A stretch of DNA of 32,000 nt from an uncultured Chloroflexia bacterium. GTDB taxonomy: Bacteria > Chloroflexota > Anaerolineae > Anaerolineales > Anaerolineaceae. Position numbers and translations under genes: made by a program. The stretch is from assembly GCA_963704755.1 (NCBI GenBank), contig OY969938.1, positions 1,500,001 through 1,532,000 of the forward strand. Direction: 5' to 3'. A model generated the notes under the pieces. That model worked only from the letters and a program-made list of their open reading frames with translations, was not told where the DNA came from and ran no database searches. Within the stretch, counting starts at the first letter, position 1; each line of letters starts with the position of its first letter. Below, in pieces: positions 4,173 to 30,100 of this stretch.

Positions 4173-4281
4173 AGTTTTTCCTCAATATTGAATTAACCGA
4201 TCACCGTTTGGTGAAAAAAATAAGCTGAATTCGGGGCATGAAAATTTTCCGTAAAGAACCCCACAGAATTCTTAAGGTATC

Positions 4282-4394
4282 GTAACTACCCAGGCCTATG
4301 TTAAGGAGTTCCCTGAATTTGAGGTGTTTGCAGGGGCGAAGCCCCTGCAAACACCTCAAATTCAGGGTTCTTACCTGACAGGCCAAGCAGTTAC
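4282..4394. repeat. Palindromic ~110-bp element, copy 1 (perfect 27-bp-arm hairpin flanked by conserved end motifs)
   Basis: Left motif GTAACTACCCAGG (4282-4294). Perfect arms CCCTGAATTTGAGGTGTTTGCAGGGGC (4311-4337) and its exact reverse complement (4341-4367), loop GAA. Right motif CCAAGCAGTTAC (4383-4394). Same architecture as 24055-24163 and 28327-28435. Confidence 0.75.
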
Positions 4395-4488
4395 ATGTAA
4401 CCAATAATTGTGCCTATCGTCCCTGCAATGATACACCATCTGGGATGCGCAGGAAAGCGTAAAAGATGCATTTGCGGAGGGATAAGTC

Positions 4489-4569
4489 GATGAGGAAACG
4501 AGGCAACCTCAGAGAAGAGAGATTAGAGAGGAGAGAATAGTGAATAAGGCAACGAGGTAGGCGGAGGCG
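4489..4569. repeat. Purine-rich GAGGCAAC-type repeat module
   Basis: GATGAGGAAACGAGGCAACC...GTGAATAAGGCAACGAGGTAGGCGGAGG shares GATGAGG..CAACC and GTGAAT[AC]AGGCAACG[AT]GG with 8367-8408. Confidence 0.5.
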
Positions 4570-4617
4570 AAATGTGCCGGCCTACCAGCCCATTGACTCG
4601 AAATAACAGCACAGAAG

Positions 4618-4740
4618 AAGAGCGTCTCAGCCGAGGGTTGCGAGGGACCGGGCCGATCTGCTTCAGACGATCATTCTTCTTAAAAAGTAATTCCTCTTTT
4701 CCTCTTTCTCTTCTCCGTGTCCTCCGTGCCTCCGTGGTTA
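4618..4740 (-). repeat. Composite post-stop repeat (SD-like octamer tract plus imperfect hairpin), copy downstream of E2
   Basis: Minus strand right after the E2 stop reads TAAGAGGGATTAACCACGGAGGCACGGAGGACACGGAGAAGAGAAAGAGGAAAAGAGG, then GCAGATCGGCCCGGTCCCTCGCAACCCTCGGCTGAGACGCT. Homologous to 22130-22271, 25268-25347 and 25525-25670. Confidence 0.65.
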
Positions 4741-4747
4741 ATCCCTC

Positions 4748-6186: not shown

Positions 6187-7170
6187 TTAATAAGCCGCCA
6201 ACTCCCGGATGGCGTTTTCGATCTTGTTCACGTCGATCATGAACCATTCCTGCATGGGGCGGCTGAAGGGCATAGCGGGCACATCCGGCCCGGCCAGCCG
6301 GCGGACGGGCGCGTCCAGGGAAGTAAAGGCCTCCTCGGCCACAATCGCGGCGATCTCGGCGCCGAAACCGCCGGTCAGGTTATCCTCATATACAATCAGG
6401 GCTTTGCCGGTCTTTTCCACCGAAGCCAGGATAGTTTCCTTATCCAGCGGATTGAGCGTGCGCAGGTCCACTACCTCCACGTCGATCCCGTCGCGGGCGA
6501 CGTTCTCGGCAGCTTGCAAAGCATAATAATGCATCATCCCGTAGGCAAAAACGCTCAAATCGCGGCCCTGCCGGCTGACCTGGGCCGGCCCAATCGGGAC
6601 GGTAAAGTCGTCGCCGGGTACTTCACCCTTAATCAGGCGGTAGCCTTTCTTCGGCTCCAGGTACAGCACCGGGTCGGGGTCGCGCACGGCCGCCTTGAGC
6701 AGCCCCTTGGCATCGCGCGGGTTGGAAGGCACCACCACTTTCAACCCGGGCACGTGGGCGAAATAGGCCTCGATGCTCTGCGAATGGTACAGCCCGCCGC
6801 CGATCCCGCCGCCATAAGGCGCGCGAATGACCATCGGCACAGTCCACTCGCCGTTGGAACGGTAGCACATCTTGGCCGCCTCGTTCACAATCTGGTTAAA
6901 GGCCGGGAAGATGAAGTCGGCAAACTGGATTTCGCAGATCGGGCGCATGCCGTACAGCGCCGCCCCAACGCCAATGCCGACAATGGACAGCTCTGCCAGG
7001 GGTGAATCCACTACCCGGTCCTGGCCGTATTTTTCGTACAATCCTACCGTGGCGCGGAACACACCGCCGCGTTTGCCCACGTCTTCTCCCACCAAAAATA
7101 CCTGGTCATCCTGGGCCATTTCTTCGTCCATGGCCTGGCGGATGGCCTCAACCAGGGTAATTTCAGCCAT
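6187..7170 (-). CDS. 2-oxoacid dehydrogenase E1 component, beta subunit
   Basis: The ORF track gives 6187-7257, but the conserved sequence starts at MAEITLVEAIRQAMDEEM (ATG at 7170). That ATG overlaps the E1alpha stop as ATGGCTGA. Transketolase-like pyrimidine-binding and C-terminal domains. Confidence 0.93.
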   Translation of the reverse strand: MAEITLVEAIRQAMDEEMAQDDQVFLVGEDVGKRGGVFRATVGLYEKYGQDRVVDSPLAELSIVGIGVGAALYGMRPICEIQFADFIFPAFNQIVNEAAKMCYRSNGEWTVPMVIRAPYGGGIGGGLYHSQSIEAYFAHVPGLKVVVPSNPRDAKGLLKAAVRDPDPVLYLEPKKGYRLIKGEVPGDDFTVPIGPAQVSRQGRDLSVFAYGMMHYYALQAAENVARDGIDVEVVDLRTLNPLDKETILASVEKTGKALIVYEDNLTGGFGAEIAAIVAEEAFTSLDAPVRRLAGPDVPAMPFSRPMQEWFMIDVNKIENAIRELAAY

Positions 7171-8149
7171 GGACCACCACCTGTTCGGAAAACACCGGGT
7201 AAGCCGCTTCTTCGGCTTCTGGTGAAGGCGCCCCCTCCGCGTAACGTACCGCCGCATCGATCATTTCTTTGGCTCGTGTTTCCCAATCATCGAGCATTTT
7301 GCGGGTTAGCAGGCCTGCCTTCTCGAGCGTTTTTTGATAAACCACCAGCGGATCGTTCTTTTTATGTTCTTCGACCTCCTCGCGCGAGCGGTAAGTACGG
7401 TCGTCGTCATCGGAGGTGTGCGGAGTGAGCCGGTACACTTGCGCCTCGATCAGCGCTGGCCCTTCGCCATTACGCGCCTGTTCGACCACCTCGGCCATGG
7501 CTTGATACACCGCTACCGGGTCGTTGCCGTCCACGGTGATTCCCCTCAGCCCCAGGCCGCAGGCCTTTTCGGCCGAGCTGGACACGGCCATTTGTTTATC
7601 CTGCGGCACGGAAATGGCGTAGGCGTTGTTTTCGACCAAAAAGATCACCGGCAGCCGGTGCACCGCCGACCAGTTGACCGCCTCGTACCATTCACCCTGT
7701 GAGGTTGAACCCTCACCCAGGGTGACCAGCACCACTTTGTCCTCGTGGCGCATCTTGATGGCCATACCAACCCCGGCGGCGTGCGGGCACTGGGTCGCCA
7801 CCGGCGAGGACTGGCTGATCACGTTAGCCCGGCGCAGTCCCCAGTGGCTGGGCATTTGCCGCCCGCCGGAACTGGGCTCTTCCCGTTTGCCCATCAGCCC
7901 CAACACGAATTCCTGGGGGGTGTAACCCAGGCACAACAATAAAGCCAGGTCTCGGTAGTAGGGGGCAACCCAATCGTATCCGCGGCGCAGCGCATAGGCG
8001 GCCCCAACCTGGGCGGCCTCCTGGCCGATGCCCGAAACATGAAAAGCAATCTTGCCCTGGCGGTGCAAAACCCAGGCGCGTTCGTCCAGGCGCCTGGCGA
8101 GCAGCATCATCCAGTACATTTCCAAGCGGGTATCATCACTCAACTCCAT
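7163..8149 (-). CDS. 2-oxoacid dehydrogenase E1 component, alpha subunit (TPP-dependent)
   Basis: 328-aa ORF. TPP-binding region GEGSTSQGEWYEAVNWSAVHRLPVIFLVENNAYAIS. CAGGAGG lies 10 nt upstream of the ATG. Confidence 0.93.
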   Translation of the reverse strand: MELSDDTRLEMYWMMLLARRLDERAWVLHRQGKIAFHVSGIGQEAAQVGAAYALRRGYDWVAPYYRDLALLLCLGYTPQEFVLGLMGKREEPSSGGRQMPSHWGLRRANVISQSSPVATQCPHAAGVGMAIKMRHEDKVVLVTLGEGSTSQGEWYEAVNWSAVHRLPVIFLVENNAYAISVPQDKQMAVSSSAEKACGLGLRGITVDGNDPVAVYQAMAEVVEQARNGEGPALIEAQVYRLTPHTSDDDDRTYRSREEVEEHKKNDPLVVYQKTLEKAGLLTRKMLDDWETRAKEMIDAAVRYAEGAPSPEAEEAAYPVFSEQVVVHG

Positions 8150-8366
8150 GTTAATGATCCTCCTGTTTAGCAGCCGGAGTCACAGCAAGCAGGCATCGAT
8201 AAGCCCATCGCATCCGGAAATAGGTTTTTGACTAACTGTACCAGCCCAGCCCTGACATTACGAGGGCGTATTTTTTAATTCAGACAAAACCACACTTATT
8301 AGAACCCTCTGCGTAAATTTTGTTACGCTCGAACAAGGAAATTCCCCCGATTTGAGGGTGGAAGGA

Positions 8367-8408: not shown

Positions 8409-8416
8409 CATAATAC

Positions 8417-9014
8417 CTCCCCCAAAATCCGCATTTGTTGCCAGGCTTTGCCCGTAACTCACCATCCCCGTTGGCCGGCGCTTCGCCCTCATCCTTCTCC
8501 CAGAAGCGGGAGAAGGGTTGCCTTGCTGCCAGAAGGCCGCTTTTAACCAGCGGTTCCCCTAATATTCGCACTTTGGATTTAAAAAAGGGTGGGTGCAGGG
8601 CTCATACGCAATACCGGTGGATCACCGGGCGGAAAAACATGCCAGGCCTTGCCCGTAACCCACCATCCCCGTTGGCCGGCGCTTCGCCCTCATCCTCCGG
8701 CCCCTTCTCCCTGAAGCGGGAGAAGGGGTGCCTTGCTGCCAGAAGGCCGTTTTTAACCAGCGGTTCCCCTAATATTCGCACTTTGGATTTGAAAAAATGT
8801 AGGGTGGGTGCAGGGCTCATACGCAATACCGGTGAATCACCGGGCGGTAAAACATGCCAGGCCTTGCCCGTAACCCACCATCCCCGTTGGCCGGCGCTTC
8901 GCCCTCATCCTCCGGCACCTTCTCCCTGAAGCGGGAGAAGGGGTGCCTTGCTGCCAGAAGGCCACTTTTAACCGGCGGTTCCCCTGAAATCCGCACTTTA
9001 GATTTTGGGGGAGG
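8417..9014. repeat. Tandem array of three ~200-215-bp units, non-coding
   Basis: Units start at GCCAGGC at 8440, 8641 and 8856 (periods 201 and 215). Units 2 and 3 differ by only a handful of substitutions over ~150 nt. Each unit has TTGCCCGTAAC[CT]CACCAT, GGCGCTTCGCC and an 11-bp hairpin CCCCTTCTCCC-tgaagc-GGGAGAAGGGG. Units 1 and 2 additionally end in a (GTA)GGGTGGGTGCAGGGCTCAT module; the truncated third unit lacks it. The array is bracketed by CCTCCCCCAAAATC (8417-8430) and its reverse complement GATTTTGGGGGAGG (9001-9014). Confidence 0.85.
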
Positions 9015-9077
9015 AATGGAAAGAGAAAAAAGTTGACCGGGCGACAAGGGAAAGAAGGACCCGCTGTCGTCTGCCCG

Positions 9078-10466
9078 TCAGCCGACCAGTTCTTTTGCTC
9101 GCAAAACCTGGGCGACATCTTGCAGGCCCATCACATCCAGCATGTCGCGATTGCTCGAGAATTTGAAATCATCCACGCCGGTATCCTTGCCGCGCTGCTG
9201 CTCCACCATTTCCAGTGTCTTCAAGGCATCTTTGGTCACCACCGGATGATCCAGGTTGGCCAGTGCTCGTTGAAACCGGCTGAGCGCATCCGGGTCCGGC
9301 CCATCCTGGGGCAGGTCCTGTAAATATTGCCATACGGCCCTGGCGCCGTTTATGCCGTCTTTGCGGGCAATGCCCACCAGGCCGGTGCTGGCCAGCCGTG
9401 ACCAGCCGGCCACGAAATAGCCGGTCCAGGGCTGTTTCGTCTCGGGATCGTATACTTCGTATGAGATCCCTTCGACCGGGTAAGCCGGGTCGGGATTCTT
9501 GTCAAAACGGCTGTTGTGCATCGGCAGCCCCAGGCGGTCGTCCACCCGGTCGCCGACCGCAAAGATGACCGTATCCACATCATATATCTTGTGCGTGGGC
9601 AGCGCGACCGCGCGGGTTTCTTCGCCATCCAGCACAAGGCTGTTGTCTTCGATTTCCAGGCCGCCCACGTGGCCGGTACCATCATCCAGAATGGCTACCG
9701 GCGAGGAGAGGAAGCGGATCCAAAAACAGGTTCGCGACTTCAATTCCTCGGCTTTATCCAGGGCCGAATGGACGTATGTCCGGGCAACTTCCGGATCCTG
9801 GCCTACCTGGCGCATAATCGGTGTGACCCGCTCGATTTCGCTGTCGAAAGATCCCACGTCCAGGTTGGCGGCAACGATCTCAAGTTGCTTGCGGTCGAAC
9901 TTGATTTCCGCCGGCCCCCTGCGAGCCAGGGTCAAGACTTCTTCCACCTTCATATCATTGATCAGGTAATGGGCGATATCTACCATCACGTTGCCAGCGC
10001 CAACGATGATAGCATTTTTCCCCAGGGAAAATTCTTCCTCGCTAAAGGGCGGCAGGTGATTGTAGTGATAAACCAGGTCTTTGGCGTGGTATACCCCCAC
10101 CAGGTTTTCACCCGGTAGTCCCAGCCATTTCGTCCCCTGGGCACCGGCCGTCACCAGCACGGCCTGGAAGCCCATTTCTTTAAGCTGCTCCAGGGTCAGA
10201 TCGCCTTGCTCGCCAACCAGCAGGTTGCCGTAATAATCGATATTCGGCATGGCTAAAGCCTGGCGAAACTGGGCCCTGAGCCCAAATTTCATCTTCAGCT
10301 TATCCGGGTAAATTCCATATTCCGCTAAACCGCCGGGTTTGATATCCCGGTTGATCAGAACAACATGCGCACCCTGGCCAGCTAATTCTCGCGCCGCAAA
10401 AATTCCGGCCGGCCCGGCTCCAATGATCGCTACTAAGAATTTGGGTGTTTCTTCCATGATGGTCAA
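9078..10466 (-). CDS. FAD/NAD(P)-binding oxidoreductase, FprA/adrenodoxin-reductase-like (ferredoxin-NADP reductase type)
   Basis: 462-aa ORF. N-terminal FLVAIIGAGPAGIFAAREL, second dinucleotide fold NAIIVGAGNVMVDIAHYL. The track start is TTG at 10466; ATG at 10457 is an equally plausible start. Confidence 0.85.
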   Translation of the reverse strand: MTIMEETPKFLVAIIGAGPAGIFAARELAGQGAHVVLINRDIKPGGLAEYGIYPDKLKMKFGLRAQFRQALAMPNIDYYGNLLVGEQGDLTLEQLKEMGFQAVLVTAGAQGTKWLGLPGENLVGVYHAKDLVYHYNHLPPFSEEEFSLGKNAIIVGAGNVMVDIAHYLINDMKVEEVLTLARRGPAEIKFDRKQLEIVAANLDVGSFDSEIERVTPIMRQVGQDPEVARTYVHSALDKAEELKSRTCFWIRFLSSPVAILDDGTGHVGGLEIEDNSLVLDGEETRAVALPTHKIYDVDTVIFAVGDRVDDRLGLPMHNSRFDKNPDPAYPVEGISYEVYDPETKQPWTGYFVAGWSRLASTGLVGIARKDGINGARAVWQYLQDLPQDGPDPDALSRFQRALANLDHPVVTKDALKTLEMVEQQRGKDTGVDDFKFSSNRDMLDVMGLQDVAQVLRAKELVG

Positions 10467-11014: not shown

Positions 11015-12320
11015 ATGACTTCACCTGTCCTCAAAAAAACACTGGCAAACGGCCTTGTCGTTATGCTCAAAGAAATCCACACCGCACCCATTATCAGCCA
11101 CTGGGTCTGGTACCGGGTTGGGTCGCGTAATGAGGTGCAAGGCAGTACCGGCATCTCTCATTGGGTGGAGCATATGCAGTTCAAGGGCACGCCACGCTTT
11201 CCGGCCGGCTACCTGGATAAAGCCATTGCCCGCACCGGTGGCGCCTGGAACGCCTTCACCCACCTGGATTGGACGACCTATTACGAAACCCTGCCGGCCG
11301 ACCAGATCGACCTGGCCTTGCAGTTGGAAGTGGACCGCATGAGCCAATTCCACCTTCGACCCGGAAGAGGTCGAATCGGAGCGTACCGTCATCCTTTCCG
11401 AATTGGCCGGCGACCTGAACGAGCCCTTATTTCGCCTGGGCGAGGCCGTCCAGAAAGCCGCCTTCGACACCCACCCCTACCGCAATGAGGTGATCGGCTC
11501 ATCGAAGACCTGGGAAAAATCCACCGTGACGACCTTTACCGCACTACCGCCGCAATTACAATCCGAGCAATGCGCTTGCTGGCCGTCGCCGGCGATTTCG
11601 ACAGCCAGGAGGTCCTTCACCACCTGGAGGAGATGTACGATCCATCTCCGCCGGGCAGGAGGCAAGATCACCCAGGCGGTGCAGCCCGAAGCCCGCCCGG
11701 CCGCCGAACGGAAAGTCGTGACCTGGAAGGTCCCAGTAACGCTACCTATATCCACATTGCCTACCGGGCCCCGGCCGCCGTCCGATCCCGATTTTTTGCC
11801 TTCACCATCCTCGATTCGCTGCTGTGCGGCCCAACCAGGCTAAATATGTTCGGCGGAGGTGGTATCTCCAATAAGACCAGCCGCCTGTACCGCGCGCTGG
11901 TAGAGGCTGAACTGGCCGTCACTGTCCGCGGCGGGATGCAGGCTACCATCGACCCATTTCTATACGAGATCGTCATGACTGTGCGGCCGGAACGCACGCC
12001 GAGACTATTTTATCCGCCGTGGATGCCAGATCAAACGGCTGCAGGACGGCCTGGTAGACGAAGCCGAAATTGCCCGCGCCACCAAACAAGCCCGGGCCAT
12101 GTTCCTTACGGCAGTGAAAATATCACCAACCAGGCTTTCTGGCTGGGTTATGCCGAAATGTTTGCCAGCTACGATTGGTTCAGCCAGTATGTGGAACGCC
12201 TGGCAAAGAATACTCCCGGCAGACATGCAGCGCATCGCTCAGGTTTATTTGAGCCCGGCGCGCCGGGTGGTCGGCGTTTATAATGCGGTCGCCGGCGAAG
12301 CGGAGAGCGAACGGAAGTGA
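11015..12320 (+). pseudogene. M16 family zinc peptidase (catalytic-type subunit), multiply frameshifted
   Basis: The N-terminus carries the HxxEH motif ([14 protein letters not shown]) and later [13 protein letters not shown]. The reading is spread over track ORFs 11015-11488, 11403-11843, 11570-12283 and 12099-12320, with further compensated shifts. One example: LYRHYRRNYNPSNALLAVAGDFD is recovered only by changing frame twice near 11541-11580. Confidence 0.85.
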
Positions 12321-12365
12321 GCATCTCTTGCCAGTAACGAACCTATTCCAGTCAGGATCACTCCA

Positions 12366-13645
12366 ATGAACCTACTCAAGACTGAACATTTACGCAATCT
12401 TCCCGGGGCAGACAATACCTCATGCGCCAGCTTGCCCAATGGGATTACAGTGCTGGTTTACCCGAACACCGACAGCGCTTCGGTGGTCATCAGCGGCTAT
12501 TTTCAGGCCGGCAGCATGTACGATCCGCCTGAAAAACTAGGGTTGGCGTATTTACCGCCTCGGCATTATGCGCGGCACCCAGACCCGCACCTTCCAGCAG
12601 ATCTTCAATGACCTGGAGACAGCCGGGGCCAGCCGGGTTTTGGCGCGAGCGTGCACACCGTCAGTTTCGGTGGTCATGGGCTGGCCGAGGACCTGCCGTT
12701 ACTGGTGGATACGCTGGCTACTGCCTGACCAGCCGGTATTCCCGGCCGAACACGTCGAACGCATGCGCGCACAATACCTGACCGGCCTGGCCATTCGCGC
12801 CCAGGACACCGCCGAAATGTCCTCACTGGCCTTCGACGAGATCCTCTTCGCCAACCACCCCTACAGCCTGCCGGAAGACGGCTACCCTGAGACCATTCAG
12901 CGTATTACCCGCGCGGACCTGGTTGAATTTCACCGGGGCTATTATAGCCCCAAGGGGCTGGTCCTGGTGGTGGTCGGCGCCGTATCGCCCGAGGCAGTGG
13001 TCGAAGCTGGTCAGCCAAAAATTGGGCCCTGGAGAAGGTGGCCGCCCGCAGAAAAACTACCCGAATTTCACCTGCCGCCCCGCCTGCGACCAATGTACGC
13101 CGCCACATTTTCTTGCCGGATAAAAGCCAGGTAGACCTGGTGATGGGCAGTTTCGGCCCGCGCCGCATCGACCCGGAGTACCCGGCGGCCGTGTTGGGCA
13201 ACAATATCCTTGGCCAGTTTGGCATGATGGGACGTATTGGCGAATCGGTGCGCGAGAACGCCGGCCTGGCTTATTATGCCTCGACCGGATTGAATGCCTG
13301 GATCGAAGGCGGCTCGTGGGAAATTGCCGCTGGCGTGGACCCGGATAATTTGAAGAGGCGATCGACCTCATCCAGGACGAAATCAAGCGGTTCGTGGACG
13401 AACCGGTCAGCGCGGAAGAGCTGGAAGACAGCCAGTCCTCCCTGATCGGACGGCTGCCGCTGAGCATGGAATCCAACCAGGGCATCGCCGGCAGCTTGCT
13501 AAATATCGAGCGCTTTAGCCTGGGCATGGATTATTACCGCCATTACCCCCAAAAGATCCGCGAAATCAGCCCAACCCAAATATTGGAAGTGGCCCGCCGC
13601 TATCTCAACCCCGAGCGCTTTGTCATCGTCAGTGCCGGCCACTAA
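12366..13645 (+). pseudogene. M16 family peptidase (non-catalytic partner type, no HxxEH), multiply frameshifted
   Basis: Family-like sequence is split over track ORFs 12366-12611, 12568-13134, 12923-13123, 13038-13445 and 13394-13645. An internal stretch of 12568-13134 reads sensibly only in another frame (LGFGASVHTVSFGGHGLAEDLPLLVDTLA). Confidence 0.85.
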
Positions 13646-13699
13646 CAGGTTAGCTCGGAGCGCGAGCATAAATGCAATCTGTCCGCACCGGAAGAAATA

Positions 13700-14100
13700 A
13701 TGATCATTTTACGAGATCAACCGTCGGATCAATCCGGATACCGGCCGGCCATCCGCGAGCGGTTTATTAAAGCGTGTGTTCACCCCGGCCGAGCTGGCTG
13801 AATCCAAGAATTAAAACGATTACCTGGCCGGCCGCTTTGCGGTCAAAGAATCGGTTTCCAAAGCCCTGGGAACCGGCATCGGTTGGGTGCACTGGCAGCG
13901 ACATCGAATGCCTGGATGGCCCCTGGGGAGAACCGATCCTGCATCTTTATGGAAATGCGGTTAAAATTGCTCAATACCTGGGACTTGAACAATGGTCTGT
14001 GAGCATCAGCCATTCGAATGAGAATGCGGTTGCCGTTGCCGTAGGGATCGGACCTTCCGATCCACCCACTGCGCCTTATCCGCTCGTCAAGCCCACCTAG
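13700..14100 (+). pseudogene. acpS: Holo-ACP synthase (4'-phosphopantetheinyl transferase), frameshifted
   Basis: AcpS-like segments lie in different frames: MII.. at 13700, EINR.., KRVFTPAELAE, LAGRFAVKESVSKALGTGIGWVHW, then track ORF 13774-14100 (DIECLDGPWGEPILHLYGNAVKIAQYLGLEQWSVSISHSNENAVAVAV). An in-frame TAA lies near 13811. Confidence 0.75.
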
Positions 14101-14893: not shown

Positions 14894-15826
14894 GTGTTTA
14901 GTTGGTTCAATAAATCCAACAATCAATTGATGCCTTTCGACGAAATCCGCAAGGTGCTGCCCATGCAGTCCCAGTTCGATGCGGGGGTTCGCCAGATTCC
15001 GATCAACAAGGTGGTCGGCAGCGTTGGCCGGTACAACGATTTCGATCGGGCCTTCTTGCCGCTCCACACCCACACCCGCAGCCGCTGGATCAACGTGGAT
15101 ATCGCCAACCGGCGCGAAATCAATTTGCCGCCAATCGAGGTCTACAAGATCGGCGAGGTGTACTTTGTCAAAGACGGCAATCACCGGGTCTCGGTGGCTC
15201 GCGAGCGCGGCCAGAAGTATATCGATGCCAGCGTGATCGAGATCGTCAGCGAAATTGTGATCGACGAAAACACCAATATCGACGAGATCATCCTGCGCCA
15301 GGATAAAGCCTACTTCTACAAAACCACCCAAATCCTGGAATTCCGCCCGGACGCCGATATCGACCTGACCTTGCCCGGCCAGTACGAGAAACTGCTGGAG
15401 CACATCAACGTTAACCGCTGGTACATGGGCGAAAAATCCGGTCACGATATCCCCTACCCCGATGCCGTACGCAATTGGTATGACCACGTTTATTGCCCAT
15501 TGGCCGTGGTGATCCAAGAACAGGATATCCTCAAAGAGTTCCCCGGCCGGACCACCGCGGACATGTACCTGTGGATTATCGAGCACCTGTATTACCTGCG
15601 GGAAGAGTTCAAGTCCGAGATAAGCCTGGAAGATGCCGCACGCAACTTTACCGAAGAGTTTTCACGCAAGCCGCTGCGCCGGATGCTGACCCTGTTTCGC
15701 AAGTTTGCCCGCGCCGCAGGAGAGGGGTTGGAAGACGCCTCTGAACTGGAACTGGGTATCCTTTCTGAAGAGATGTTGATCAATTCTGAGCCGCCCGAAG
15801 ATGATGAGGGTGAAGAAGAACGCTAA
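14894..15826 (+). CDS. ParB/Srx-like N-terminal domain plus DUF4032-type protein; 5' end probably disrupted
   Basis: 310-aa ORF from GTG, with ParB-like motif VYFVKDGNHRVSVARERG and an acidic C-terminal tail. The same frame stays open and looks protein-like back to 14807. A strong GAGGAGG-ATG start at 14796 is in a different frame and stops at 14844-14846. Confidence 0.8.
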   Translation: MFSWFNKSNNQLMPFDEIRKVLPMQSQFDAGVRQIPINKVVGSVGRYNDFDRAFLPLHTHTRSRWINVDIANRREINLPPIEVYKIGEVYFVKDGNHRVSVARERGQKYIDASVIEIVSEIVIDENTNIDEIILRQDKAYFYKTTQILEFRPDADIDLTLPGQYEKLLEHINVNRWYMGEKSGHDIPYPDAVRNWYDHVYCPLAVVIQEQDILKEFPGRTTADMYLWIIEHLYYLREEFKSEISLEDAARNFTEEFSRKPLRRMLTLFRKFARAAGEGLEDASELELGILSEEMLINSEPPEDDEGEEER

Positions 15827-15838
15827 ATTAAAGAAACT

Positions 15839-15866
15839 GGCCGGCCCCCTGGCGTAAGGGCCGGCC
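15839..15866. terminator. GC-rich hairpin between convergent genes
   Basis: GGCCGGCCC (15839-15847), 10-nt loop, GGGCCGGCC (15858-15866). On the minus strand it is followed by CAGTTTCTTTAATTT. Confidence 0.5.
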
Positions 15867-15899
15867 CGTCTCAGGTGATTCGATTTCCCCCTGTTTGAA

Positions 15900-16163
15900 T
15901 TATCGGGAATTACCCGCACCTTCCTTATTATTTCCTTCGCTGATCCCAATCCAGAAATGGTTGGGGAGGATCCGCCGGTTGGCTTTTATTTCAACACCGT
16001 TGCGGTGCGACAGCTCTTCGTGCAGCATACTGGGATGAACAAAACACAAGTCTGGATGTATGCCATACTTGTGCTGGTAAAAATCGACCGCACGGCTGAT
16101 TTTAGTCTGCAAATCAGCCTTTGGGTCGTTATCGAACCATAACATGCCGGTGTTCATGCTCAC
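15900..16163 (-). CDS. Small conserved hypothetical protein (~87 aa)
   Basis: The track ORF runs 15900-16352, but GGAAGGAGG sits 10 nt upstream of GTG at 16163 (ATG at 16157 as alternative). Product: VSMNTGMLWFDNDPKADLQTKISRAVDFYQHKYGIHPDLCFVHPSML... I recognise no domain. Confidence 0.6.
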   Translation of the reverse strand: MSMNTGMLWFDNDPKADLQTKISRAVDFYQHKYGIHPDLCFVHPSMLHEELSHRNGVEIKANRRILPNHFWIGISEGNNKEGAGNSR

Positions 16164-16266
16164 TTTGTAAGTGCCTCCTTCCATCCATTCTGTGCGAGCG
16201 CTGGCAGGTACCCGGTTTCCCTGATCATTGGCCGACCACAGGAAGTTAGAGCGCCCGCCCGGTCGC

Positions 16267-17085
16267 TCAAATTTCGGGCGTCCAAAATTGCAGGTTGGCA
16301 CGCCCAATCCGCACGGCAAACTGGCGGCCGCGCTCGAAGGCGGAAAAGTCAACCGTGGGCAGCAACGAAAGCTCGCGGGCCGTGGTTGGGTCTTCGATAT
16401 AACCGGTCAGGCGCGACCGAAACAGGCTGATCCACTGGGGGTGTTGGCGGGCCGTTTGTACATCGCAGGCCACCACCGGCCAGACCTGGTAAAAGGGTCC
16501 TTCTTGCAGCAGCCATTCGAAATTCAGGCGCACATCGAAGTCCATATATGGCAGGGTATCCATGCCATCCAGGATGACCAGGTGGGCGCCACCGCTCATC
16601 CGCCCGTGCTGGCGGCTTTCGATCAAGTCGCAGGCCGCAAGGATCGCATCGGCCGCGTCGCGCTCGTAATTGGAGGTGATCACCTTGAAGTAGTCGCCGT
16701 AACGGTTTTCCTCGAGCGACCACTGCCCGGGCTTGGCGCTGATCACGCTGAATTGGACTTCATACGGTCGGTTGGTCCGCAGTAAAGAATGCACCATCGT
16801 TTTAATCAGGCCGGTCTTGCCGGCATAACGCTCGCCCACGATCAGCAAAGACCCCGGGCGGGGATCGTTCAGATCGAACAAAACCGGGGTATGCTCACTG
16901 CTCTCGCCTAAAATCGCGGTCTGCAGCGGTAAAGCCGGCATTTGCCGGATCAGGTCATTCAGGCTGGCCGGCTTTGATCCGGGCGTCTGCTGCCCGCCGC
17001 GGAGTGGAGTGCCAACCCGGGTGTTCCAGGCCGGAAACGCATGCGCGTCCATTTTTGTATTTACAATCGGTAGAGCTACCATCAC
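16267..17085 (-). CDS. Stand-alone FtsK/SpoIIIE-like P-loop ATPase domain protein
   Basis: 272-aa ORF. Walker A LLIVGERYAGKTGL, Walker B-like HLVILDGMDTL. The overall layout resembles a single FtsK/EssC-type ATPase domain. Start is GTG at 17085 or ATG at 17082. Confidence 0.75.
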   Translation of the reverse strand: MMVALPIVNTKMDAHAFPAWNTRVGTPLRGGQQTPGSKPASLNDLIRQMPALPLQTAILGESSEHTPVLFDLNDPRPGSLLIVGERYAGKTGLIKTMVHSLLRTNRPYEVQFSVISAKPGQWSLEENRYGDYFKVITSNYERDAADAILAACDLIESRQHGRMSGGAHLVILDGMDTLPYMDFDVRLNFEWLLQEGPFYQVWPVVACDVQTARQHPQWISLFRSRLTGYIEDPTTARELSLLPTVDFSAFERGRQFAVRIGRANLQFWTPEI

Positions 17086-17173: not shown

Positions 17174-17220
17174 GTACTTAATGTAAGAGTGTTGAAAAAC
17201 ACCTTCATATAAAAATTTTT

Positions 17221-17267
17221 GGGATAAATGTGGCGGGGCGGCTTCGCCGCCCCGCCACATTTATCCC
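17221..17267. terminator. Perfect 22-bp-arm hairpin, possible bidirectional terminator or insulator
   Basis: GGGATAAATGTGGCGGGGCGGC-ttc-GCCGCCCCGCCACATTTATCCC. GC-rich top, with ATAAAT/ATTTAT at the base. It lies between the IS and the FtsK-like promoter. Confidence 0.4.
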
Positions 17268-17545
17268 AATTCGGATGATGAAAAGCGACTTTTTCATCAC
17301 CCTCTAATGTTCGTTGTGGGGAAACCCAAGATACCGTTTTGGCTTTCTCGTATTCACTTTACAAAAATCAGGATTTTTGCCATCGCGAGCCCTGGTCGCA
17401 ATGACAACCCTTCCTTGAGAAAGCCATGTAGACACAGTCAGGGCGATTGCAACCGGCCTGCTTTTCGAGGGCAGTTCCCCAAAGAATGGGTTTTTGGGAC
17501 TAAATTGGGATGATGCGATTGCCCTGTAGACACAGTTTCCCTCCA

Positions 17546-18839
17546 CGTGGTGCCTCAAAATAAAATGTTACTTTGGGATAATCGTTGCCTCAAATAGAAA
17601 TGTTACCGGAGAATTCTTAACAATTGATTGACCTTTTTATTGATACTGGCCTGTAAGGACACAGGGTTCAGATGAACATATTGGGCAGTAAGACTGGCCT
17701 TGACTTTCAGGGGAAGAGAGTCCTGGGCTAAGACCCGGCGATAGGGGGTCTTGGCCAGATCATACTTACGGATCGTCTTGCCGTCAACGGTTTCTTTAGC
17801 AATCAGTTTGAGAACTGGCTGGAAAAAATTGATGTAAAGACGCAAATCGGAGTAAATGGATTTGAGCAAGGCAAGTTCTTGTGGGGTTTCGAAGCGGTCA
17901 TAGCCAATGGTATGTCGAACAACCGACCAATTCTTCTGTTCCACATGAGCCTGATCATTCTTGTGGTAAGGCCGCGAACGCGTAAAGGTAATGAGTTCGC
18001 TCTGGCAGTATCGCAAAAGTGTATCGTTGATGAATTCACTGCCATTGTCTGAATCCAATCCCAAAAGAGGAAAAGGCAGGTTATGGCGCAATTCCTCAAT
18101 GGCTTGAGAGACAGCTGTCTGGGTTTTGTTGGCCAGGCCCAGGCACTCGGTCCAGCCGGTGGCTAAATCGGTTGCAGTGAGGGTATTGAGGTAGGTACCC
18201 TCGGTGGTTGTACCACAATGGGCCACCAGGTCGATTTCCAGAAAGCCTGGCTTCTCGTCCTCCCAAGGGGTAAAGGTGCGGATGGGAATGGCTTGTTTGA
18301 GCAAACTGCCCGGTTTGGTAGTCCCAAGCCCACGTGGGGTGGGGGCGAGGCGTGCCTTTTTCAAACAGCGATCTATGGTGGCCCGGCTCAAGCTCAACAA
18401 AAGCGCTTTGGTTTCCTCGCTCAACTCTATTTCCTGCCAGCGCTCTAAAACATCCACCATTTCAGGAATAAAAGGCTGTAGTCGTTTTGAGCAGATGCAC
18501 CCACTAACTTCCCAAATCTTTTCCAGAGCCACGACGACTTCCCCGTTGTATTTCTTCCGTCGCCCGGCTTTCTTCAACCCCTTTGGCTTGGAACCATGCT
18601 TCAACAGCCGAATAGCGTATTTACGATGATATCCGCTTGTGGCGATAAATTCATCCAGAATCTGTTTCTTCTCGGCTTTCCTGGCTTTCAAATAGCGCGG
18701 ACGAATGCTTTCTAGCATCTCCCGCCGACTGCGTTGACTCATCATGAGCTCCCTCTGCGGTGCTTTATTCCGCGTTAGGGTAACATTTATTTTGAGCCAA
18801 CGTTATTTCGCAAAGTAAGATTAATTGTGAGGCAATTCG
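17546..18839 (-). mobile_element. Insertion sequence, 1294 bp, single rve/DDE transposase (ISNCY/IS481-like; family uncertain)
   Basis: ~60-bp imperfect terminal inverted repeats: CGTGGTGCCTCAAAATAAAATGTTACTTTGGGATAATCGTTGCCTCAAATAGAAATGTTACC versus the reverse complement of 18779-18839. 5-bp direct repeat CTCCA at 17541-17545 and 18840-18844. Visibly lower GC than the flanks. Confidence 0.85.
17603..18745 (-). CDS. DDE (rve/integrase-core) transposase
   Basis: 380-aa ORF. N-terminal HTH-like region (ILDEFIATSGYHRKYAIRLL). Catalytic candidates in FLEIDLVAH, LDSDNGSEFIN and HVEQKNWSVVR. AGGGAG lies 4 nt upstream of the ATG. Confidence 0.9.
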   Translation of the reverse strand: MMSQRSRREMLESIRPRYLKARKAEKKQILDEFIATSGYHRKYAIRLLKHGSKPKGLKKAGRRKKYNGEVVVALEKIWEVSGCICSKRLQPFIPEMVDVLERWQEIELSEETKALLLSLSRATIDRCLKKARLAPTPRGLGTTKPGSLLKQAIPIRTFTPWEDEKPGFLEIDLVAHCGTTTEGTYLNTLTATDLATGWTECLGLANKTQTAVSQAIEELRHNLPFPLLGLDSDNGSEFINDTLLRYCQSELITFTRSRPYHKNDQAHVEQKNWSVVRHTIGYDRFETPQELALLKSIYSDLRLYINFFQPVLKLIAKETVDGKTIRKYDLAKTPYRRVLAQDSLPLKVKASLTAQYVHLNPVSLQASINKKVNQLLRILR

Positions 18840-22123: not shown

Positions 22124-22129
22124 AAAAAT

Positions 22130-22271
22130 AACCACGGAGCACGGAGAAGAAAAAACAAAAGAGGAAGAAATTAACCACACAGGACACAGAGAGAAAAGAG
22201 TTTAAGAAAAGTAAAGAGGGTTTGTTAAAAGTGATCGGCCCGGTCTCCAGACCGAGGCCGATCTGCTTTTT
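22130..22271 (+). repeat. Composite post-stop repeat (SD-like octamer tract plus hairpin plus T-run), copy downstream of glpX
   Basis: Begins 6 nt after the glpX TAA: AACCACGGAGCACGGAGAAGAAAAAACAAAAGAGGAAG...AACCACACAGGACACAGAGAG. Then hairpin GATCGGCCCGGTCTCCAGACCGAGGCCGATC (22233-22263), followed by TGCTTTTT. Confidence 0.65.
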
Positions 22272-22318
22272 ATAATCCTTCTTTCCTACCCTTAAGCTCT
22301 TTCCTTATCGGTAGCGCT

Positions 22319-22493
22319 GTAGGGTAGGTGAAGGGCTCATTAACACTACTGGTGACTTACACACCGGCAAGACCTACGAAACCTTGCCCGTAACTCACCA
22401 TTATGTACGGATGGTGGGTTACGGGCAATTCCTGGGTTGAGGTAGTTGCTCTTTGTTCGCAAGTGTTATGAATGAGCCCTGCACCCACCCTAC
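22319..22493. repeat. 175-bp REP-like composite palindromic element
   Basis: Outer arms GTAGGGTAGGTGAAGGGCTCAT (22319-22340) and ATGAGCCCTGCACCCACCCTAC (22472-22493). Central hairpin TTGCCCGTAACTCACCAT (22384-22401), 9-nt loop, ATGGTGGGTTACGGGCAA (22411-22428), with one G-T position. Both modules recur in the 8417-9014 array. Confidence 0.7.
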
Positions 22494-22502
22494 GGCTAAT
22501 TG

Positions 22503-24054: not shown

Positions 24055-24163
24055 TAACTACTCAGTCCAGTTCAAAGCGGGAGATTGTTTTGTAGTTTTT
24101 CGCGTGCTTTGCACGCGAAAAACTACAAAACAACCGACCTCTCCTGGATAGTTGAGCAGTTAC
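24055..24163. repeat. Palindromic ~110-bp element, copy 2 (perfect 23-bp-arm hairpin flanked by conserved end motifs)
   Basis: TAACTACTCAG (24055-24065). Perfect arms TTGTTTTGTAGTTTTTCGCGTGC (24085-24107) and reverse complement (24111-24133), loop TTT. GTTGAGCAGTTAC (24151-24163). Inner flanks also pair (TCCAG/CTGGA, GGGAG/CTCTCC). Confidence 0.75.
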
Positions 24164-25267: not shown

Positions 25268-25347
25268 GAAGAGCGGCCTCGGTCTGGAGACCGGGCCGAT
25301 CCGCTCTTAAAAAACTCTTCTCCGTGACCTCTGTGTCCTCTGTGGTT
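25268..25347 (-). repeat. Composite post-stop repeat, short copy
   Basis: Plus strand: GAAGAGCGGCCTCGGTCTGGAGACCGGGCCGATCCGCTCTT, then AAAAAACTCTTCTCCGTGACCTCTGTGTCCTCTGTGGTT. The hairpin core is the reverse complement of the one at 22233-22263. Confidence 0.55.
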
Positions 25348-25524: not shown

Positions 25525-25670
25525 GCAGAGCGGCCTCGGCCAAGGGTAGCGAGGGACTGGGCCAATCTGCCACAGGCTTTCGTCTTTTCGACCAGCGAAT
25601 TTTCTTATTTTCTTTTCTTTCTCCGTGTGCTCTGTGCCTCCGTGGTTATCTTTCTTTTCCTCTGCGGTGA
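25525..25670 (-). repeat. Composite post-stop repeat, copy downstream of ecfT
   Basis: Plus strand: GCAGAGCGGCCTCGGCCAAGGGTAGCGAGGGACTGGGCCAATCTGC, then a pyrimidine tract ending CTCCGTGTGCTCTGTGCCTCCGTGGTT. On the minus strand it begins within 30 nt of the ecfT stop. Confidence 0.6.
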
Positions 25671-28326: not shown

Positions 28327-28435
28327 TCACTACTCAGCTACCCTGGAGGAACTGGGTGTTTTTATTATTTTTGTGTGCTTCGCACACAAAAATAATAAAA
28401 ACACCCATATCTTCTGAACCCGGTTGAGCAGTTGC
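28327..28435. repeat. Palindromic ~110-bp element, copy 3 (perfect 25-bp-arm hairpin flanked by conserved end motifs)
   Basis: TCACTACTCAG (28327-28337). Perfect arms GGGTGTTTTTATTATTTTTGTGTGC (28354-28378) and reverse complement (28382-28406), loop TTC. GTTGAGCAGTTGC (28423-28435). Confidence 0.8.
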
Positions 28436-29954: not shown

Positions 29955-29955
29955 G

Positions 29956-30014
29956 GAACAAAAGATATGGAGAGGGGTGCGGTTTCACCGCACCCCTCTC
30001 CATATCTTTTGTTC
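29956..30014 (+). terminator. Intrinsic terminator, perfect 28-bp-arm hairpin
   Basis: GAACAAAAGATATGGAGAGGGGTGCGGT-ttc-ACCGCACCCCTCTCCATATCTTTTGTTC, followed by TTT. It starts 2 nt after the FHA gene stop. A-tract and T-tract at the base suggest bidirectional use. Confidence 0.7.
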
Positions 30015-30100
30015 TTTAGCCCGCTTGTACAAGAATTTGTGCTTTCCGGTTTGGGTTGTTTACCCGTTAAATGTTAAGATCACTTACCCAGGAGATGCGA

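Follow-up and report, generated by a model that had tools for sequence, protein, structure and literature searches.

The tandem array at 8439-9005, in the spacer between an FprA-like gene and a 2-oxoacid dehydrogenase operon, is in our judgment a BIME-like cluster, in which a mosaic unit of about 215 bp was amplified to about 2.7 tandem copies; we hold this reading with moderate confidence. Small selfish palindromic repeats have most likely accumulated here in this lineage, and the array is less likely to be a regulatory RNA dedicated to the pyruvate/2-oxoacid dehydrogenase operon. The original prediction, which was made from the letters of the sequence, had left three options for a non-coding role (a tandem sRNA or decoy, a protein-binding array, or nested mobile repeats). 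We favor the last of these, given that the unit is a mosaic of a MITE-like arm and a BoxC/PIT/TM-like module. Throughout, the window means the whole 32-kb stretch of DNA that was analyzed.

Anatomy and setting of the array

TRF finds a single array at 8439-9005, with a period of 215, 2.7 copies, 91% matches and a score of 924. The three units described previously are real, with starts at 8439, 8640 and 8855, each one base before the earlier numbers. Unit 1 (8439-8639, 201 nt) has a 9-nt deletion beside the hairpin module and a 5-nt deletion of TGTAG at the foot of box A. Unit 2 (8640-8854, 215 nt) is the most complete of the three, and unit 3 (8855-9005) is truncated, lacks both box A and the CCGGTGA palindrome, and ends in a tail hairpin. 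As had been claimed, units 2 and 3 are nearly identical (95% over 205 nt), and the small deletions of unit 1 are confirmed. The statement that the period is not a multiple of 3 is correct for the spacing of units 2 and 3 (215) and incorrect for that of units 1 and 2 (201 or 210, both multiples of 3).

Two motifs occur once per unit, GGCGCTTCGCC (8477, 8678 and 8893) and the box TTGCCCGTAACYCACCAT (8448, 8649 and 8864), and two others occur only twice, box A GGGTGGGTGCAGGGCTCAT (8587 and 8802) and CCGGTGRATCACCGG (8614 and 8829). The third unit does break off before the second box and the CCGGTGA palindrome, each of which is found in only two places. A conserved hairpin of 11-14 bp was predicted for every unit; the hairpin CCCCTTCTCCC/GGGAGAAGGGG is indeed present in each, but its perfectly paired stretch reaches 11 bp only in unit 2 and stops at 9 bp in units 1 and 3. 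From box B to GCCCTCAT, the opening ~55 nt of a unit are almost invariant across all three, while the remainder differs by 5-9%, and the units at the edges are the most diverged. The near-invariance of this first segment could reflect constraint rather than homogenization.

The array is bracketed by an inverted repeat, with ATACCTCCCCCAAAATC on the plus strand at 8413-8429 and its partner GATTTTGGGGGAGGAAT, also on the plus strand, at 9001-9017. The bracket had been noted before, and it is exact over a 14-mer at both array ends (8416-8429 and 9001-9014), extending to 17 nt with one mismatch (94% complementary). An inverted repeat of 16/17 positions exactly at the two ends, and the lack of the whole segment in the spacer of relatives, would suit a single composite non-autonomous transposable element of about 600 bp (8413-9017), with 17-bp TIRs and internal tandem repeats, that was inserted whole between the FprA-like gene and pdhA. 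We regard such an element as unlikely. The right arm, as seen in the fold of unit 3, doubles as the 3' half of the tail hairpin with which every unit ends, and the left arm resembles its 5' half. A tandem duplication with breakpoints inside one hairpin therefore explains the bracket equally well. Also against the composite element are the absence of a visible target-site duplication beside the bracket repeats, the absence of the bracket 14-mer from the rest of the window, and the ~330 nt of further, non-repeat spacer that is likewise extra in comparison with relatives.

The flanking genes are as originally described, and both are minus-strand genes. The FprA-like FAD/NAD(P) oxidoreductase gene (9078-10466), which encodes a flavoprotein, has its stop codon 61 nt from the array. 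The E1-alpha gene (7163-8149) is the first in an E1a-E1b-E2-E3 operon, with ~265 nt of unique sequence between its start and the array. The closest relatives are Anaerolineae MAGs with an E1-alpha that is 75-78% identical, and the FprA-like protein has 64% identity to the syntenic gene of one of them (L024). These relatives keep the order of the FprA-like gene and E1a-E1b-E2-E3, with a spacer of 87-168 nt compared with 930 nt here, and no sequence resembling the array was found in their syntenic spacer. Because the spacer of relatives is short and holds nothing similar, the array is best understood as an insertion followed by amplification, not as a conserved leader. At 75-78% protein identity, absence in relatives would still be compatible with a young, lineage-specific function. 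The original prediction had stressed the position directly upstream of a central-metabolism operon. The position is correct, but carries little weight given the spacer of 87-168 nt in relatives and the inflation of other spacers: the gap between E2 and E3 is 575 nt here and 108-120 nt in relatives, and other spacers of the window are likewise swollen by repeats.

In the present data, the element is carried by one genome only. Exact 18-mer scans with TTGCCCGTAACYCACCAT of genome, metagenome and viral contig collections gave single chance matches with no extension past the word, and the phage collection searched had no match to the array. Exact look-up of the FprA-like protein (with two start sites) and of glpX found no strain variants, and we found no paper in the literature on MITEs in Anaerolineae. 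A replication origin with iterons was considered and rejected, since the GC skew does not turn at the array and none of the 28 ORFs scanned is a dnaA gene. The anatomy led us to reject an integron attC array or a CRISPR as well: units of 215 bp that are 91-95% identical contain no unique cassettes or spacers; there is also no integrase or cas gene among the same 28 ORFs.

A mosaic of repeat families

Each unit combines an 84-nt MITE-like arm, a hairpin module (GCCCTCATCC..CCCCTTCTCCC-loop-GGGAGAAGGGG) and small linker hairpins. The first copy of the arm (8583-8666, plus strand) consists of box A GGGTGGGTGCAGGGCTCAT, CCGGTGGATCACCGG and box B TTGCCCGTAACCCACCAT, lies across the junction of units 1 and 2, and has its GTAG foot deleted. 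The second copy (8798-8881, plus strand) lies across the junction of units 2 and 3 and has the GTAG foot at 8799; taken as reference, it is 94% identical to the first. A solo box B, TGCCAGGCTTTGCCCGTAACTCACCAT (8439-8465, plus strand), is what is left of a third arm where the array begins.

The arm at 8798-8881 (84 nt) is 75% identical to 22318-22401, which is part of a second locus in the window. This is a MITE-like palindrome of ~180 nt at 22316-22496, in the spacer between convergent glpX and MFS genes. Its 40-nt arms are 78% complementary, carry boxes A and B and have GTAG/CTAC feet, and it folds into one long hairpin (z = -10.0). The proposal that both boxes are the arms of a second element, at 22319-22493 in the earlier numbering, is thus confirmed. 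GTAGGGT occurs at 8799 and 22319, CTAC at the right end of 22316-22496, and TGTAG is deleted at the junction of units 1 and 2.

Known bacterial MITEs include Correia/NEMIS of Neisseria and Nezha of Cyanobacteria. The palindrome at 22316-22496 is like them in being a ~180-nt palindrome with long inverted arms in a spacer between convergent genes, with solo arms and fragments elsewhere (in the array). It differs in having no recognized target-site duplication and no transposase with matching ends, and in being limited to two loci in the window. Inspection of the flanks of the array and of 22316-22496 revealed no clear direct repeat, with a TA dinucleotide possible at the latter. The search of the window for an autonomous partner with matching ends was also negative: the sole transposase (rve domain, 17603-18745) is unlike both the unit and the palindrome, and there is no BLAST match in 17-19 kb.

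Box A and box B are a single 14-mer, GGTGGGTNNNGGGC, in opposite orientations; at no more than one mismatch, it has 10 matches in the window compared with 1.3 expected; nine of these fall within the array and 22316-22496, always as inverted pairs. Along the array the boxes follow the order B(-) 8450, A(+) 8588, B(-) 8651, A(+) 8803 and B(-) 8866, with alternating linkers of 49 nt and ~124-138 nt, and a 15-nt third variant, GGTGRATCACCGGGC, lies between each box pair. REP clusters are commonly made of units that are tandemly reiterated together with flanking DNA, mostly downstream of genes, and GTAG repeats have been reported in the phylum Chloroflexi (Di Nocera et al. 2013, PMC3733652). The array resembles the BIMEs (bacterial interspersed mosaic elements) of enterobacteria and the clusters of GTAG-tagged REP families (PMC3733652) in its intergenic site downstream of a gene in a co-directional pair, in its inverted motifs of alternating orientation, and in its two alternating linkers, with the whole mosaic tandemly reiterated. 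As in GTAG-REPs, the GTAG is at the outer end of the arm and outside the helix (8799 and 22319), and 22316-22496 corresponds to a 'head-to-head' dimer.

The resemblance has limits. A GTAG-REP unit is a short imperfect palindrome with a stem of 5-13 bp and a loop of 2-20 nt, whereas boxes A and B are not palindromes themselves, and the helix that they form with each other (14 nt, 79% complementary) has 49 nt between its arms. The 215-bp unit is also far larger than BIME units, and none of the 28 window ORFs scanned has the Y1 transposase domain of a RAYT gene. Of the 131-nt linker part there is no second copy in the 32-kb window, so this part may not be a repeat outside the array.

The excess of the 14-mer, its occurrence in inverted pairs and the third variant within each pair would also be expected of a protein-binding DNA array, in which the alternating GGTGGGTNNNGGGC boxes are putative sites for a nucleoid protein, a gyrase, a transposase or a regulator, like E. 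coli BIMEs. We think this quite improbable, given that no candidate protein can be named and that neither a regulator nor a transposase gene adjoins the array. Furthermore, the same boxes are found between convergent genes at 22316-22496, where promoter control is unlikely.

The second component of the mosaic is a hairpin module of three blocks, on the minus strand. In unit 2 (8687-8727) it reads CCCTTCTCCC-GCTTCA-GGGAGAAGGGG-CCGGA-GGATGAGGG. In unit 3 (8902-8942) one plus-strand C>A change leaves a perfect stem of 9 bp, and in unit 1 (8485-8517) the module is degenerate, with the 9-nt deletion removing the second loop and part of the third block. The modules of units 2 and 3 have nine consecutive purine-motif triads (G*G-C / A*A-T / T*A-T), equal to the E. 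coli TM example, and that of unit 1 has only seven. Within the 32-kb window the module is confined to the array. Elsewhere, it has matches in cyanobacterial plasmids, of 87% over 47 nt (E = 3e-5) in a Pseudanabaena plasmid and of 83% (E = 4e-3). There the module makes up half of a pair of inverted hairpins, and a plasmid can have as many as 12 matching places. This pair is also present in a Cupriavidus plasmid, and plasmids of Azospirillum and Vitreoscilla match only its other hairpin. A relaxed three-block pattern finds units 2 and 3 as well as all the family members fetched from plasmids, and has no match in 29 other fetched control loci, syntenic relatives included.

By these comparisons the module belongs to a widespread BoxC/PIT/TM-like repeat family, with relatives on cyanobacterial and proteobacterial replicons and an intrastrand triplex as its predicted structure. 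Members of the BoxC/PIT/TM motif class are abundant, intergenic and tied to local genomic instability, and Chloroflexota are absent from the hosts reported (Holder et al. 2015, PMC4666352). The module shares with BoxC/PIT/TM(ECO) the order of blocks (C-rich stem, loop, G-rich stem, loop and mirror G-rich block), the nine allowed purine-motif triads, the intergenic site and, as a family, the association with local rearrangement. It is also directly similar, at 83-87%, to the CCCTTCTCCC...GGGAGAAGGGG...GGATGAGGG subtype of cyanobacterial plasmids. It is unlike the strict TM(ECO) consensus, CCCTCNCCC-N3-6-GGGNGAGGG-N3-GGGNGAGGG, which has no match anywhere in the window: the stem is 10-11 nt with TT, the second loop is 5 nt and not 3, and GGATGAGGG replaces GGGNGAGGG. 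In addition, the usual inverted pair is reduced here to one of its halves, which is embedded in a larger tandem unit. Box A and the third BoxC block (TAGGGTGGG and TAGGGGTGAGGG, respectively) might have a common ancestry, which we judge too weak to claim.

RNA, peptide and assembly readings

Both flanking genes are on the minus strand, and on this sense strand a GGUGGGU/ACCCACC helix (box B'/A') is followed by T6/U6 at the two unit junctions (8581-8586 and 8792-8797). Box B' pairs alternatively in different folds, box B and the ~30 nt that follow it hardly vary between units, and the spacer of relatives likewise has a hairpin and a T-run. Taken together, these features would suit a cis-acting minus-strand RNA array, i.e., a repeated terminator, attenuator or 3'-end stabilizer that insulates pdh from read-through and in which box B' has two alternative partners, the CCGGTGA region and box A' with the U-tract behind it. 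The same features could be those of tandem sRNA genes of ~215 nt. Like tandem sRNA genes and the Chloroflexi-1 motif, the array is multi-copy, hairpin-rich and intergenic, in a host of the phylum Chloroflexota. We assign an RNA array of either kind a small, though not negligible, probability.

Several results weigh against it. The original prediction had called for an Rfam scan with the Chloroflexi motif included; in Rfam 15, with Chloroflexi-1 among the models, there is no match at the gathering score, and at E<=10 there are only chance matches of 12-16 bits (E = 3-9). Neither strand of the array has a promoter-like (sigma-70-like) site, the terminator scan did not pick up the box helices, and the tRNA/tmRNA scan found none. 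The array folds no better than shuffled sequences (z-scores from -0.45 to -2.0). Compensatory changes, which the original prediction had wanted to test for in the proposed stems, are present in 0/54 predicted pairs across the three units, with an unfavorable covariation term, although three copies give this comparison almost no power. The array is not conserved in relatives, and in E. coli the related PIT/BoxC elements acted neither as promoters nor as terminators (Holder et al. 2015, PMC4666352). With no Rfam, promoter, folding or covariation signal and no counterpart in relatives, the sRNA and decoy options of the original prediction are unsupported, and so is the protein-binding one.

A more elaborate version would have ~215-nt structured RNA or ssDNA modules, each with a BoxC-type hairpin and a switchable box B' helix, on the sense strand of fprA-like/pdh. 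Three in series would form a graded attenuator or insulator, setting how much of the transcription of the ferredoxin-NADP reductase-like gene continues into the 2-oxoacid dehydrogenase operon, and the selfish mosaic would have been domesticated for this very recently. We consider this domestication improbable.

On the selfish-repeat reading that we prefer, the array is non-coding and probably without a dedicated function, and the tests for a peptide agree with the non-coding role proposed earlier. Mycobacterial MIRU/VNTR minisatellites are tandem intergenic repeats inside or between operon genes. The array is similar in being a tandem intergenic repeat with unit ORFs in which a stop overlaps the next start, and in its likely copy-number polymorphism. 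A MIRU-like coding minisatellite could therefore be imagined, with a minus-strand peptide of ~72 aa per unit and the ATG at box A overlapping the stop codon of the unit before it (ATGA). None of the three units interrupts this minus-strand frame, and the 9-nt deletion is in frame. However, the main period of 215 is not a multiple of 3, the units are 2-5 times longer than those of MIRU/VNTRs and are built of other repeat families, and the frame of unit 1 continues into unrelated sequence. A search of 5.8 billion proteins with peptides from six frames of the unit gave no homologue at E<=10, called ORFs of the source genome included, the unit ORFs have no match in Pfam, and no SD precedes the unit ATG. 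The ORF differences are mostly nonsynonymous, as had been observed (10, compared with four synonymous); 75% nonsynonymous changes are expected at random, and the substitutions look neutral. A coding array is thus extremely improbable.

It is also very improbable that the array is an assembly artefact, with a copy number inflated or mis-joined by the assembler. Frameshifts relative to relatives, in the neighboring M16 peptidase pair and in ACPS, would be consistent with an error-prone long-read assembly. Collapsed or expanded artefacts normally consist of identical copies, but the units differ by 5-9% substitutions and by distinct 9-nt and 5-nt indels, and the pdh and fprA-like genes that flank the array are intact. 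An independent Logan contig of 1.3 kb matches 6923-8268 at 100%, and ends ~150 nt short of the array.

Origin of the array and its significance

We suspect that mobile or selfish palindromic repeats landed in the spacer, and that replication slippage or unequal recombination, favored by DNA that is prone to form hairpins or triplexes, then multiplied the unit. The 9-nt and 5-nt deletions of unit 1 may have arisen later, also by slippage or recombination. The resulting array would have no dedicated, selected function. Should it form the 3' tail of the FprA-like mRNA, its hairpins may have the incidental effect of stabilizing or ending the transcript.

As a new regulatory RNA, the array is no strong candidate. 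It illustrates how spacers may expand in an Anaerolineae genome, with small palindromic repeats from different families nesting within one another before tandem amplification. Here, a spacer next to a core metabolic operon has gone from ~90 nt, as in relatives, to 930 nt. In practice, the array could well serve as a marker of variable copy number and is likely to cause assemblies to break. The module extends the BoxC/PIT/TM-type hairpin family to Chloroflexota, and its 83-87% identity to copies on cyanobacterial plasmids bears on how tiny elements without a known transposase may spread.

Setting and lineage-specificity of the array

The tandem array occupies positions 8439-9005 within a 930-nt spacer whose flanking genes both lie on the minus strand. 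An FprA-like flavoprotein is encoded at 9078-10466 (minus strand), and its gene stops 61 nt short of the array. On the other side lie the genes for E1-alpha, E1-beta, E2 and E3 of a 2-oxoacid dehydrogenase complex (8149 down to 2775, minus strand), with about 265 nt of unique sequence between the E1-alpha start and the array. Tandem Repeats Finder returned it as the single large array of the window (score 924, 91% matches, 2.7 copies, period 215), and a gap-free repeat finder placed the unit starts at 8439, 8640 and 8855, with 95% identity between units 2 and 3 over 205 nt. In alignments, unit 1 has two deletions, one of 9 nt beside the main hairpin and one of 5 nt that removes TGTAG from the foot of the short motif termed box A. 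These three methods bear out the three-unit array of the original prediction, and all of the motifs that it listed were found and positioned exactly. The main hairpin, given as 11-14 bp, is present, but its perfect stem reaches 11 bp in unit 2 only and is 9 bp long in units 1 and 3. The inverted repeat that brackets the array is longer than had been proposed (17 nt with one mismatch, 8413-8429 and 9001-9017). The repetition could be an artefact of assembly, but this is very unlikely, given that the three units differ in substitutions and in distinct multi-base indels.

The source sequence is one contig of 4.87 Mb, and its proteins fall into singleton clusters. The E1-alpha homologues with source names are from Anaerolineae (Bellilinea, Levilinea, Longilinea), and the best matches are only 75-78% identical. 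Seven loci of the closest relatives (20-kb contexts), representing three E1-alpha proteins at 75-78% identity, keep the gene order M16 peptidases, FprA-like, E1-alpha, E1-beta, E2, E3 and SecA. The spacer between the FprA-like and E1-alpha genes is 92, 87 and 168 nt in these relatives versus 930 nt in the window, and a BLAST comparison of the window spacer and of a palindromic element at 22316-22496 with the relatives' loci gave only noise. Because the relatives' spacers are short and lack similarity, the array is a lineage-specific gain, not a conserved operon leader. Exact-word scans of genome, metagenome and viral collections for the 18-mer of a second motif, box B, found only chance singletons. 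More spacers in the window are inflated and hold other repeat families, and thus the array is one instance of a general habit of this genome. The E2/E3 gap (4173-4747), for example, is 575 nt versus 108-120 nt in relatives. This second case of spacer inflation in the 2-oxoacid dehydrogenase operon contains a perfect palindrome with 27-nt arms, AGAGAAT-type microsatellites (4511-4546) and a repeat of a family found 3' of genes.

Mosaic structure of the unit

Each array unit is a mosaic of repeat modules. One is an arm of 84 nt, with box A (GGGTGGGTGCAGGGCTCAT) at one end, box B (TTGCCCGTAACCCACCAT) at the other and CCGGTGRATCACCGG between them. It shares 75% identity with the left arm of the 22316-22496 element (alignments, and direct and inverted repeat families D3, I1, I4 and I9 of the repeat finder), whose right arm matches the boxes in reverse complement. 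The element is a palindrome of about 180 nt between convergent glpX and MFS genes, its predicted fold is one long hairpin (z = -10.0), and it is MITE-like, though no target duplication or partner transposase was recognised. Boxes A and B share a 14-mer, GGTGGGTNNNGGGC, which they carry in opposite orientations; with at most one mismatch it has 10 matches in the window versus 1.3 expected, nine of them in the array and this element. Successive boxes of the array point in opposite directions (B-, A+, B-, A+, B-), two linkers take turns between them, and the tetranucleotide GTAG stands at the outer foot of the arm (8799 and 22319). That these boxes form a protein-binding array seems to us quite unlikely.

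A second module is a hairpin with relatives in distant bacteria. When one unit was compared with PLSDB plasmids by BLAST, matches were confined to unit positions 100-147, GCCCTCATCC..CCCCTTCTCCC-loop-GGGAGAAGGGG, and the matching sequences lie in unannotated spacers of a Pseudanabaena plasmid (87% identity, E = 3e-5) and a Leptolyngbya plasmid (83%). In these two plasmids the module is half of an inverted hairpin pair, and as many as 12 places match in a single plasmid. A Cupriavidus plasmid has the pair too, and Azospirillum and Vitreoscilla plasmids match only the other hairpin of the pair. On the minus strand, the window's module reads CCCTTCTCCC-GCTTCA-GGGAGAAGGGG-CCGGA-GGATGAGGG, in the three-block order that Holder et al. 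(2015, PMC4666352) describe for the BoxC/PIT/TM(ECO) "intrastrand triplex" motif. In a scripted count, units 2 and 3 have nine consecutive permitted purine-motif triads, equal to an E. coli TM, and unit 1 only seven, because its 9-nt deletion takes out the second loop. The strict E. coli TM consensus has no match here. A relaxed three-block pattern matches only units 2 and 3 in the window and all fetched plasmid family members, with no match in 29 other fetched loci, syntenic relatives included. Judged by layout and by similarity to the cyanobacterial subtype, the module is a member of the BoxC/PIT/TM family in the broad sense.

The inverted pair itself has the form CCCTCAYCCCC..hairpin..hairpin..GGGGTGAGGG in the fetched plasmid loci (L030, 1501-1610; L031, 1502-1589 and 2844-2940; L033; L034). 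It is multi-copy and intergenic in the Pseudanabaena and Leptolyngbya plasmids, and its identity across phyla is high for such a short element.

The other ~90 nt of the unit comprise GCCTT-N8-AAGGC, CCGC-N9-GCGG and a "tail" hairpin, and have no second copy within the window. In the predicted fold the tail hairpin of unit 3 has the right bracket as its 3' arm, and the left bracket resembles the 5' arm and loop of that hairpin. A single composite MITE with 17-bp ends would account for the brackets, but since they match or resemble arms of the tail hairpin, a tandem duplication that broke inside one hairpin fits at least as well as transposon ends, and we regard the composite MITE as unlikely.

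Tests for RNA and coding functions

No Rfam family reached its gathering score in the array, and at E<=10 only noise of 12-16 bits appeared; of the Chloroflexi-specific motifs suggested for comparison, Chloroflexi-1 was absent. Between 8100 and 9150 there are no sigma-70-like promoters on either strand and only weak matches to terminator-like sites. Folding of whole units and their parts gave z = -0.45 to -2.0 against dinucleotide shuffles, within about two standard deviations. The compensatory changes sought in the proposed stems were found in none of 54 pairs of the three-unit consensus fold, in which the covariation term was unfavourable, three copies giving little power. On the sense (minus) strand, a helix of the two boxes (B'/A') precedes a T6 run at two junctions, and B' has an alternative pairing partner in predicted folds; these features could give incidental termination or 3'-end protection. 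Against this idea, BoxC/PIT elements showed neither promoter nor terminator activity in E. coli (PMC4666352). A cis-acting RNA array or tandem sRNA genes are improbable, though we rate them above the other alternatives.

All three units keep one minus-strand frame open, with a stop that overlaps the following ATG in box A. This frame has no Shine-Dalgarno-like site, unit frames have no Pfam match, and a concatenated query of all open frames had no match at E<=10 among 5.8 billion proteins, in keeping with the non-coding view of the original prediction. Differences between the frames had been described as mostly non-synonymous, and they are (10 versus 4 synonymous; chance alone would make 75% nonsynonymous). 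The period was said not to be a multiple of 3, which is true of the 215 nt between units 2 and 3 but not of the spacing between units 1 and 2, which is 201 or 210. A coding minisatellite is extremely unlikely.

A replication origin at the array is rejected, as the GC skew does not turn there. Cumulative skew has its minimum at ~15000-17000, where its sign turns from negative to positive and gene orientation changes too; because neither dnaA nor any other origin marker turned up, this is probably a coding-strand effect.

Neighbouring repeats and proposed origin of the array

The window also holds five long near-perfect palindromes (4311-4367, 17219-17269, 24076-24142, 28346-28414 and 29952-30018), with arms of 24-33 nt, 88-100% complementary, and 3-nt centres. 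Three of the five centres are GC-TTC-GC or GC-GAA-GC, the GCTTCGC core of the small hairpin in every array unit. Those at 24076 and 28346 lie in divergent promoter regions, one ahead of an ECF S-component gene and one ahead of a 494-aa ORF, and may be a single larger element family, because they have the outer flanks ACTACTCAG ... GTTGAGCAGTT in common. A purine-rich family (4630-4745, 22124-22283, 25270-25345 and 25540-25650) lies directly 3' of stop codons, sense to the upstream gene (E2, glpX, CbiQ), with two tandem copies after CbiQ. It reads TAACCACGGAG(G)CACGGAG...AAGAGAAA then GATCGGCCCGGTC..., and its CACGGAG heptads, every 8-9 nt, include the Shine-Dalgarno-like GGAG.

The ORF at 17603-18745 (minus strand, 380 aa) has an integrase-core (rve) domain and presumably encodes an IS transposase. 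It is inserted between the 274-aa/DUF4032 gene block and frr, a site at which relatives lack a gene of this kind. GC in this stretch is the lowest of the window (47%), and the ORF has no similarity to the array or the MITE-like element. At 11015-14100, two M16 peptidase genes and a holo-ACP synthase gene are split over several frames or interrupted by a stop versus intact orthologues in relatives (tblastn); the pdh and fprA-like genes are unbroken. The breaks do not obviously fall in homopolymers, and are either assembly indel errors or genuine pseudogenes.

On balance, we favor the array as a BIME-like cluster, in which nested palindromic arms and a BoxC-type hairpin formed a mosaic that was then tandemly amplified. 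A local MITE/REPIN-like palindrome may have supplied the arms that nested, together with the hairpin, 3' of the FprA-like gene, and the 215-bp mosaic would then have been amplified by slippage or unequal recombination, promoted by its structure-prone DNA. Small deletions would have come later, and the edge units would have diverged more strongly, as is usual. Published accounts agree with the BIME-like picture, and TM/BoxC loci are reported to be hot spots for intergenic rearrangement (PMC4666352). The array probably has no dedicated function.

In architecture the array resembles BIME or REP clusters; however, its A:B helix encloses a 49-nt loop, unlike a REP palindrome, and its hairpin departs from the strict TM(ECO) consensus. 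The most interesting by-product of the analysis is the likeness of the hairpin module across phyla. The array belongs to a known class, that of interspersed-repeat mosaics, which are little described in the Chloroflexota.
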